From the NCBI RefSeq assembly GCF_038871235.1, contig NZ_JAVZIN010000002.1, positions 74,731-138,730 of the forward strand: DNA of 64,000 bases, read 5' to 3'. The position numbers were made by a program, and so were the translations under genes. Source of the stretch: Candidatus Hadarchaeum sp. GTDB lineage: Archaea > Hadarchaeota > Hadarchaeia > Hadarchaeales > Hadarchaeaceae. The first letter of the stretch is position 1. Every line of letters starts with the position of its first letter. The notes under the pieces are model-generated. The model saw nothing but the letters and a program-made list of their open reading frames with translations. It had not been told where the DNA came from and made no database searches. Of this stretch, positions 38,819-40,297 are shown one piece after another.

Positions 38819-39091
38819 TCACCTCTTCCGCCTAACTCTTTCCTCGGGCCGCCCGACCAGCCTCCTACCTTCTATTACCACAGTCTGACCATCAGGCAGT
38901 TTTATCTCGAATGATGAGCCAGATTTTGGCACTATTTTCGCGGCTGACATGTGTTCAATCACCAGCATATCCCGTGTTTCATCCAGAATCTTGCCGTAGA
39001 CGCCCAAAAGATTAGGATCAGAACTGCTCACGACCTGCGCCTCGAGCCCAATAAGCTCGTGCTGCAATATGTTTCTTTTAGTCAACGGCAT
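38819..39091 (-). CDS. rnp1: Ribonuclease P protein Rpp29
   Basis: HELIGL, G.ILDETR, GRPEER; ATG 39091 with AGGTG SD. Confidence 0.93.
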
Positions 39092-39099
39092 AACGCCAC

Positions 39100-39408
39100 C
39101 TATCTCATGTTTATCATCTCGGGGGTGAACCCAAGACTCACGAGCACTTCCTTTACTCGCTGTTCGTGGTGCCCCTGTAGCTCTATGCGCCCATCCTTCC
39201 AAGTTCCACCGCAGGCAAGCTCGGATTTCAGTTTCTTAGTCAGGTCTTTGATGCTGACTTGTTTGTCATCGAGACCTTCTATGACCGTGACGACCTTGCC
39301 GAACTTTCGCTTGATGACATATACGTTTATCCGTTGCTGCTCTCGAGCTATCTCTTCGCAGACGCAGAGTTCCTTGGGCAGACCACAAACTTTACATATC
39401 TCTTGCAG
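39100..39408 (-). CDS. sui1: Translation initiation factor aIF-1 (SUI1), apparent CTG start
   Basis: Not in ORF track. (L/M)QEICKVCGLPKELCVCEEIAREQQ...RKFGKVVTVIEG...LKSELACGGT...IELQGHH; conserved position between uL29 and Rpp29. Confidence 0.93.
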   Translation of the reverse strand: MQEICKVCGLPKELCVCEEIAREQQRINVYVIKRKFGKVVTVIEGLDDKQVSIKDLTKKLKSELACGGTWKDGRIELQGHHEQRVKEVLVSLGFTPEMINMR

Positions 39409-39411
39409 TGC

Positions 39412-39621
39412 TCATCCACCTCCTCGCTGTTTTTCCCTTATAATAGTGAGTATTCTGGCTATCGCCCGCTTGAGTTCCCGGATTTTCGCCGGATTTTCCA
39501 GCGAGCCGCCCGCAGCCGCTGTAGCCCTAGCTCTGGCCAGCTCTGATCTCAGCTCCTTCAATTTCTGCACCATCTCATCAAAATTCATTGACCTTATTTC
39601 CTCAGGCCTGAGCGTCGCCAT
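39412..39621 (-). CDS. rpl29: 50S ribosomal protein uL29
   Basis: LRPEEIRSM, ENPAKIRELKRAIARILT. Confidence 0.95.
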   Translation of the reverse strand: MATLRPEEIRSMNFDEMVQKLKELRSELARARATAAAGGSLENPAKIRELKRAIARILTIIREKQRGGG

Positions 39622-40297
39622 CGCCAACACCCTCCTCAGGGGCCTTCTTGACCTTAGTTTCCTCGACCTTTTCACCAGCTGGCTGTTTTTCGGTCCCGGT
39701 CGTTTCTTCCGCGATCTTTATCTCTCCCGGCAAGGGGACATCCGGGGGCATTATGCTCACCTTTATACCCACGATGCCGGGCTTCAATTTTGCCACCGCT
39801 TTTCCGTGGCTGACCAGTTTCTGAGCCGGCTCTCCAGCCTTGCTCAAATATCCCTCATAAAATCGCATGCTCCTCGACCGCTCTCCGGCAATCCTGCCGG
39901 AAATCACTATCTCCACTCCTCTGGCTCCAGCTCCCATTATCGTCCTAACCATGCTCTGACCGACTCTACGAACGCTCAAGCCACGCTCCAAAGCGAAGGC
40001 GATGTGCTTGGCCATAATCGGTCCCGACAGCTCTGGCTTAGGTATTTCCACAACCTCAACCTGTGGTTTTTCGAGGCCGAACTTTTGTTCCAAATCGTCG
40101 GTCAGCTGCTTGATGCTCTTACCCTTCTTGCCGATCACCATTCCCGGCCTCTCTACATAAATAGTAACTCTGGTACCCGTGAGAACTCTTTTTATATCCA
40201 CGCCGCCGTATCCGGCCTTCGAAAGCTCGTTCTGAAGATAGGTTTCTAGCTGAACTCGTTTGATTCCCTGCTTGATGAAGTGTTTTTCTACTGGCAT
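39602..40297 (-). CDS. rps3: 30S ribosomal protein uS3
   Basis: RPGMVIGKKG, GARGVEIVISG, GIVGIKV. Confidence 0.97.
   Translation of the reverse strand: MPVEKHFIKQGIKRVQLETYLQNELSKAGYGGVDIKRVLTGTRVTIYVERPGMVIGKKGKSIKQLTDDLEQKFGLEKPQVEVVEIPKPELSGPIMAKHIAFALERGLSVRRVGQSMVRTIMGAGARGVEIVISGRIAGERSRSMRFYEGYLSKAGEPAQKLVSHGKAVAKLKPGIVGIKVSIMPPDVPLPGEIKIAEETTGTEKQPAGEKVEETKVKKAPEEGVGDGDAQA

Follow-up and report, generated by a model that had tools for sequence, protein, structure and literature searches.

A probable CUG start codon conserved on the gene for initiation factor aIF1 in the archaeal family Hadarchaeaceae

Main

The gene for the translation initiation factor aIF1 (SUI1) in a Candidatus Hadarchaeum genome has no canonical start codon at its 5′ end, and a CTG stands at the position of the initiator methionine. 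Comparison across the Hadarchaeaceae, a family of hot-spring archaea, strongly supports initiation at this CUG. We propose that aIF1 of this family is translated from CUG with the help of a Shine–Dalgarno sequence and probable coupling to the upstream uL29 gene, and that its own product would exert negative feedback on its synthesis; taken as a whole, this is the account that we consider probable. The window analysed here is a stretch of 64,000 nucleotides (contig NZ_JAVZIN010000002.1, positions 74,731 to 138,730) from a genome (G000) of 1.2 Mb in 16 contigs with 50% G+C. Coordinates below are those of the window unless stated otherwise.

The uL29–aIF1 junction

On the minus strand, the junction reads ...CAG CGA GGA GGT GGA TGA GCA CTG CAA GAG ATA TGT AAA GTT TGT.... 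The uL29 (rpl29) gene (39412..39621, minus strand; PF00831, E = 1.6e-19) ends at a TGA (39412–39414) that lies in the aIF1 frame, and its final codons, GGA GGT GGA, contain the Shine–Dalgarno sequence of aIF1. A single codon, GCA, separates this stop from the CTG (39406–39408, minus strand), the putative start codon, which thus lies 3 nt past the uL29 stop. From the CTG, the aIF1 coding sequence (39100..39408, minus strand) runs for 102 codons to a TAG (39100–39102), within a stop-to-stop frame of 39100–39411. The product contains the SUI1 domain (PF01253, E = 5.7e-20; score 72 bits, cut-off 25.5), matched over profile positions 1–76 of 77 in the Pfam profile. Its translation has an N-terminal Zn knuckle of the form CxxC...CxC (39358..39396, minus strand), which is kept in all of the loci parsed. 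The next gene encodes the RNase P component p29 (Rpp29; 38819..39091, minus strand; PF01868, E = 3.3e-23) and opens with an ATG at 39089–39091. Both the archaeal Zn knuckle and the gene order uL29–aIF1–Rpp29 are therefore present here, and the same order is found in the loci of relatives.

Between the uL29 stop and the Zn knuckle there is no in-frame ATG, GTG or TTG. One has to read 87 codons past the CTG to reach a canonical start, which is why aIF1 is absent from the default list of open reading frames. The CTG occupies the slot in which other archaea carry the methionine of M-x-E-I-C. An ATG at 39413–39415 overlaps the uL29 stop (ATGA) and opens an out-of-frame mini-ORF, MSTARDM* (39392..39415, minus strand). 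The initial annotation had described this arrangement of CTG, in-frame uL29 stop, missing canonical start and mini-ORF, and every element that it observed is correct.

The gene is under purifying selection. It is single-copy, with one match in the genome of the window. Of the 45 family genomes, 42 have an intact open reading frame of 102 codons, and invariant residues all show synonymous variation in their codons, which identifies the gene as functional.

Two further features of this region were observed. The uS3 and uL29 genes overlap by 20 nt (39602–39621, minus strand), with the uL29 ATG at 39619–39621 and the uS3 TGA at 39602–39604, making another tightly packed junction of the operon. On the plus strand, opposite uS3, uL29 and aIF1, a frame of 432 codons stays open (38951–40249); the codon usage of these minus-strand genes most likely accounts for it.

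Start codons across the family and other archaea

To place the junction in context, we compared the 46 species genomes of the Hadarchaeaceae (family f1). The aIF1 gene was found and parsed in 45 of them, the remaining genome being 56% complete. CTG stands at the methionine position in 34 of the 45 genomes, representing 10 of the 12 genera, and in 7 of the 8 genomes of the window's own genus. Among the others, three (all in genus g12) have GTG at this position and five have an in-frame ATG upstream, namely four species of genus g9 and one of g11. The four g9 species have a spacer that is 1 nt shorter, which puts the ATG of the ATGA in frame (ATG AGC GCG CAG GAG...). Two genomes (G005 and G015) offer only an in-frame ATA, which overlaps a TAA stop (ATAA), and in one (G024) the start is ambiguous, as its only in-frame GTG falls inside the Shine–Dalgarno sequence. 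Of the 34 genomes with CTG, 31 have an in-frame stop separated from it by a single codon and one has the stop directly adjacent (TGA TAG CTG), and in none of the 34 does an in-frame canonical start occur between the nearest upstream stop and the CTG.

Outside the family, the homologous codon is nearly always ATG in the archaea sampled. It is ATG in all 19 readable genomes of other Hadarchaeota families (one more runs off its contig), against CTG in 34 of 45 genomes within the family. Relatives thus do not all have ATG, and the non-AUG start is conserved across most of the family. Further archaeal loci, labelled Woesearchaeota, Thermoplasmatota and others, have ATG in 66 of 66 cases, or in 65 of 65 without L078, whose genome is flagged as unpublished. 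An even sample of a second phylum gave ATG in 26 of 30 loci, GTG in three and CTG in one, and a third phylum gave ATG in all 28 parsed loci, with three loci not parsed by the motif. A few loci belong to more than one of these outside-family sets.

Two observations from the wider sample concern other lineages. Locus L184 (G073, another phylum) has CTG at the methionine position (GTG ACG ACA CTG CCT GAG ATC TGT); an in-frame GTG stands three codons upstream of it, within an AGGTGA motif, and the order-mates L173 and L191 have ATG. L184 may be an independent, ambiguous case. Loci L167, L187 and L189 are the three of the 30 sampled in the second phylum with GTG at the methionine position; aIF1 may carry the weaker canonical starts more often than one would expect.

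Selection on the CTG codon

Codon usage distinguishes a start codon from a leucine codon. Across the 34 CTG genomes we counted 35 columns with an invariant residue (Met and Trp excluded), of which 34 show 2–6 synonymous codons and the start column alone shows one, a count that is partly circular because the group was picked by its CTG. The non-circular version takes all 45 genomes: the start column then holds CTG in 34, GTG in 3, TCG in 4 and GCG in 4, and CTA, CTC, CTT, TTA and TTG occur in none. The seven other leucine columns of aIF1 each use five or six leucine codons over the same 45 genomes, and TTG makes up 46 of the 125 CTG and TTG codons at those columns compared with 0 at the start column. 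A single transition turns CTG into TTG, which is a common start in the genome of the window: by a crude estimate it accounts for 42 of 156 first starts preceded by a Shine–Dalgarno sequence (ATG, 101; GTG, 13).

All eight genomes with GCG or TCG in the start column have an in-frame ATG (5), ATA (2) or GTG (1) upstream. CTG thus persists only in genomes that offer no other candidate start, and it is never swapped for a synonymous leucine codon nor upgraded to TTG. These tallies run over related species, and hence we attach no formal probability to them. The absence of any synonymous leucine codon and of TTG, together with the decay of CTG once an upstream ATG or ATA has arisen, indicates that CTG is selected as a start and not as leucine. 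Together, these comparisons strongly support initiation of aIF1 at CUG.

Possible origin of the CTG state

The sister families suggest how the state arose. In these, CTA, CTG or TTA precedes the ATG (TAA CAG CTA ATG CCT GAA, compared with TAA CAG CTG CCA GAA in the family). The family junction equals that of the outgroup minus one codon, and therefore looks like the product of a 3-nt deletion in CTR-ATG that left CTG. Both a tree of locus DNA and a tree of six ribosomal proteins (669 columns, aIF1 excluded) nest the ATG families f3 and f4 within f1, beside the GTG genus g12 (SH-aLRT 91–100) and at odds with the family labels (L014, L018 and L026 versus the f1 loci). An approximately unbiased (AU) test did not reject f1 as a single clade (p = 0.24). 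Two histories are compatible with these results: ATG was lost once at the base of f1, or it was lost deeper and regained in f3 and f4.

Probable delivery of ribosomes to the CUG

The 16S rRNA ends in ...GATCACCTCCT, and AGGAGGTG at 39417..39424 (minus strand) is therefore a perfect 8-nt complement of its 3′ end. The Shine–Dalgarno sequence (GGAGGTG, part of AGGAGGTG) ends 8 nt before the CTG. The genome has 178 long open reading frames with a Shine–Dalgarno sequence of 6 nt or more. Their commonest aligned spacing is 5 nt (53 frames), in line with what the initial annotation had gauged from several other genes, and 8 nt occurs in 10. The spacing at aIF1 is usable but longer than optimal. GGAGGTG or a longer match, in the register that places CTG 8 nt downstream, is present in 30 of the 34 CTG genomes, and the other four are degenerate. 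In 12 of 16 cases from the sister families, 11 nt separate this register from the ATG. Compared with the mode of 5 nt in the genome of the window, that spacing is itself long, and the ancestral theme of the junction may therefore be simple attenuation.

On this sequence evidence, the strong 8-nt Shine–Dalgarno sequence within the last uL29 codons would deliver ribosomes to the CUG 8 nt downstream. Ribosomes probably also arrive by terminating at the uL29 stop 3 nt upstream and reinitiating. A stop-to-start distance of −8 to +10 nt is treated as predictive of termination–reinitiation in archaea (PMC10666635), and the +3 nt between uL29 and aIF1 falls inside this range, making translational coupling of the pair probable.

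It could be argued that virtually all aIF1 comes from ribosomes that have terminated at the uL29 stop and restart 3 nt on, such that proximity matters more than codon identity and the Shine–Dalgarno sequence is a by-product of the Gly-Gly C terminus of uL29. The uL29 stop does lie within a few nucleotides of the CTG in all 34 CTG genomes, and coupling over such distances was shown in Haloferax volcanii (PMC10666635). In the four g9 species, moreover, the aIF1 ATG overlaps the uL29 stop and lies only 1 nt past the Shine–Dalgarno sequence; this is too close for placement guided by that sequence, so coupling must operate in those species. Against an exclusive role of reinitiation stands the strict conservation of both CTG and its 8-nt register, which shows that codon identity and spacing are each under selection. 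We regard reinitiation as the only route as doubtful; this account and our preferred one, in which both routes would contribute, are compatible and do not exclude each other.

Little else at the RNA level sets the site apart. RNAalifold found no conserved structure at the aIF1 start (26 sequences, −1.37 kcal/mol, 0 covarying pairs), and the start region folds more weakly than shuffled sequences (z = +1.88). A scan with bacterial consensus sequences, which omits archaeal promoters, found no promoter or terminator near the junction on the minus strand.

Pairing of the CUG with the CAU anticodon of ordinary initiator Met-tRNA would involve one mismatch. Initiator-type tRNA genes with a CAU anticodon in a GGG/CCC stem and with several introns are present in three CTG species. 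We also considered a special initiator tRNA that reads CUG and saw none, the initiator-type genes of these three species all carrying CAU. A search of the window's own assembly, which is 95% complete, did not find an initiator tRNA.

The initiator-type tRNA genes of the Hadarchaeaceae (L150:1431-1558, L151:1431-1558 and L156:1431-1558, plus strand; L160, minus strand, around the motif match) have an AGCGGGG... 5′ end and the anticodon arm GGGCTCATAACCC, are seemingly interrupted by several introns (D-arm and T-arm), and are missed or weakly scored by ARAGORN and Rfam. Detection of tRNA genes in the genome of the window gave only 34–36, and in many of these the introns sit at non-canonical positions.

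We also scanned this genome for reading frames of at least 80 codons that open with a non-canonical codon behind a Shine–Dalgarno sequence of 6 nt or more, a search that sees only genes with strong Shine–Dalgarno sequences. CTG starts are not enriched in it (7 of 251 positions, not above other codons), and aIF1 is the only position that combines an 8-nt Shine–Dalgarno sequence, an adjacent stop and a real protein. One other case is credible: an ACG, 7 nt past GGAGGTG, that would open a gene for a LivK-like binding protein of 411 codons (L143:1464-1466; contig C6, minus strand, outside the window). A Lys-rich hydrophobic signal anchor precedes the first ATG, GTG or TTG of this gene, which comes 36 codons on, and a search of the family at E = 1e-40 gave no orthologue. 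The ACG is possibly a second near-cognate start in this genome, or else a T-to-C error.

Proposed feedback and the fixed-start alternative

The proposed feedback builds on the biochemistry of aIF1. The factor destabilizes initiation complexes on non-AUG mRNA in Saccharolobus (Sulfolobus) solfataricus, according to PMC6237735, PMC4705826 and PMC8211752; the published discrimination data concern AUU, a codon other than CUG, in an archaeon distant from the Hadarchaeaceae. In Pyrococcus abyssi, aIF1 proofreads erroneous complexes (PMC6237735). If aIF1 acts likewise in the Hadarchaeaceae, it would reject the initiation complex on its own CUG, and more aIF1 should therefore mean less initiation there. 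On these statements, and by analogy with IF3 and eIF1, it is plausible that aIF1 represses its own CUG initiation in this way. The CUG is not indispensable: GTG in three family species and an in-frame ATG in five have replaced the weak start.

The main rival reading accepts the CUG as the real start and holds it to be a fixed attenuator or a frozen accident, with any feedback lacking physiological weight. A 3-nt deletion would have taken the ATG from CTR-ATG, and the neighbouring CUG would have given enough aIF1, for which demand is lower than for the ribosomal proteins encoded in this highly expressed operon. Several observations fit. The sister families have CTA ATG or CTG ATG at 11 nt (12 of 16), compared with CTG at 8 nt, one codon shorter, in the family; several lineages later swapped to GTG or ATG with no visible consequence; and the aIF1 protein has no residues specific to the family when conservation of 90% or more is required, which leaves the start codon as the sole mark of a special regulatory state.

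Against a fixed or accidental start, TTG, a frequent start one transition away, has never replaced CTG. As CTG and TTG interchange freely at the other leucine columns, this argues that the weakness itself is kept. Some feedback would, in addition, be an automatic consequence if aIF1 rejects near-cognate codons, as published work states. We judge a fixed or accidental start of this kind to be unlikely.

A bolder form of the feedback reading is that selection in the Hadarchaeaceae keeps CUG over UUG, GUG and AUG as the sensor of a stringency-feedback loop, and that the three domains of life have independently wired IF3, eIF1 and aIF1 to weak starts. We hold this to be a serious possibility that falls somewhat short of probable. 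If it is correct, the family would show such a loop being rebuilt or abandoned, by capture of the ATGA through a 1-nt deletion, by an AUA derivative and by a swap to GUG.

The out-of-frame mini-ORF

The initial annotation had further proposed that the ATGA mini-ORF acts as a decoy for reinitiating ribosomes, and this part does not survive the comparison as a conserved feature. The out-of-frame ATG is present in only 20 of the 34 CTG genomes, is GTG in 4 and is absent from 10, in which the stop is TAA; where the mini-ORF exists, it has 7, 24, 33, 45 or 72 codons. This lack of conservation makes the decoy idea weak. The ATG lies 1 nt past the Shine–Dalgarno sequence, so a 30S subunit guided by that sequence could hardly use it, and only ribosomes terminating on uL29 could do so. 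The ATGA start of the g9 species can evidently work when in frame, and a decoy role is therefore possible in some species, without being a conserved part of the system.

A stricter version, in which initiation occurs at the out-of-frame ATGA and a +1 shift leads into the aIF1 frame, or in which the mini-ORF is an obligatory decoy, is highly improbable. It can draw on the overlap of the ATG with the uL29 stop in 20 of the 34 genomes and on the four g9 species, in which a spacer shorter by 1 nt brings the ATG into frame. The alignment of the start region contains no slippery or conserved shift site, the ATG is absent from 10 genomes and replaced by GTG in 4, the length of the mini-ORF varies from 7 to 72 codons, and species whose TAA stop provides no ATG have an intact aIF1 gene.

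Sequence integrity

The initial annotation had raised an indel at 39400–39420 as the first thing to check. We examined Logan contigs, not raw reads, of four runs from two studies (one of the runs may be the source of the assembly) and found no indel and no change over this interval. The contigs show no difference across 39392–39444; one run has six substitutions, none of them beyond 39391. A search for RNA runs containing the locus returned none. The genomes of 33 other species, each assembled independently, have this junction too, and its recurrence is stronger evidence against error than the Logan contigs.

A sequencing or assembly error, a pseudogene, a readthrough fusion of uL29 and aIF1, or a start at the ATA or GTG codon before the first Cys is next to impossible on these comparative data, which already contradict each variant: the shared frame of the uL29 stop would suit an artefact or readthrough, and some public gene calls do begin before the first Cys or within the Zn knuckle (99 and 93 amino acids), but assemblies of 34 species share the junction, as do the contigs of four runs, with no indel. 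The aIF1 reading frame is intact, single-copy and under purifying selection. The uL29 stop can be TGA, TAA or TAG; one species has two stops in a row, and in two species the stop is not in the aIF1 frame. TGA also ends uS3 in the same operon, and the codon before the Cys varies among ATA, ATC, ATT, GTG, GTA and GTC and sits 17 nt from the Shine–Dalgarno sequence.

Annotation and significance

The CTG start is already called by public pipelines, inconsistently. A public protein collection holds 102-amino-acid versions of aIF1 that start with M-Q-E-I-C or M-P-E-V-C, which are CTG calls, together with 99-amino-acid versions that begin at the codon before the first Cys and 93-amino-acid versions that begin inside the Zn knuckle. 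The names that the sources give to these entries range from 'translation initiation factor' to 'stress response translation initiation inhibitor YciH'. A CUG start would explain why aIF1 is called at three lengths, or missed, in annotations of Hadarchaeota.

The initial annotation knew of no account of such a system in Archaea, and this agrees with our full-text literature searches, which found no description of a non-AUG start on archaeal aIF1 or of its autoregulation in the papers covered. PMC6237735 treats eIF1 autoregulation as a eukaryotic parallel only. If our model is right, a thermostat for start-codon stringency that is built on a factor's own weak start would exist in Archaea as well as in Bacteria and Eukarya, and would here have originated by a simple, traceable event, the loss of AUG from CTR-AUG. 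It would also supply a natural CUG-initiated mRNA for measuring discrimination by aIF1, for example in the reconstituted systems of P. abyssi or S. solfataricus.

Comparison with known systems

By its distribution (CTG in 34 of 45 and ATA in 2 of 45 family genomes, compared with ATG in the sister families), the aIF1 start is both suboptimal and conserved, and we view it as a variant, new for archaea, of the weak-start logic that IF3 and eIF1 exemplify, with feedback as a plausible part of the analogy. The AUU start of infC is widespread in bacteria. As PMC3326321 recounts (citing Butler 1987 and Sacerdot 1996), infC encodes IF3 and has a near-cognate codon, AUU, as its own start, against which IF3 discriminates. 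Like infC, the aIF1 gene encodes a start-fidelity factor and carries a conserved near-cognate start. The two proteins are unrelated, however, and the codon is CUG (AUA in two species) and not AUU. Unlike the infC case, moreover, the CUG state is confined to one archaeal family, aIF1 sits inside a ribosomal-protein operon 3 nt after uL29, and the feedback is here proposed by analogy.

The autoregulation of eIF1 through an AUG in poor context, as described in PMC3326321 and PMC6237735, is the second precedent. Here the protein is homologous (PF01253) and the logic of a suboptimal start on its own gene is the same, but eukaryotes keep the AUG and weaken its Kozak context in a scanning system, whereas in the Hadarchaeaceae the AUG is gone and placement would depend on the Shine–Dalgarno sequence, on termination–reinitiation or on both. 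With the coupled gene pairs of H. volcanii, the uL29–aIF1 pair shares a short stop-to-start distance, and four species of the family have the ATGA overlap form. It differs from them in its start codon: the described cases (PMC10666635) use canonical starts, with no restart at CUG among them.
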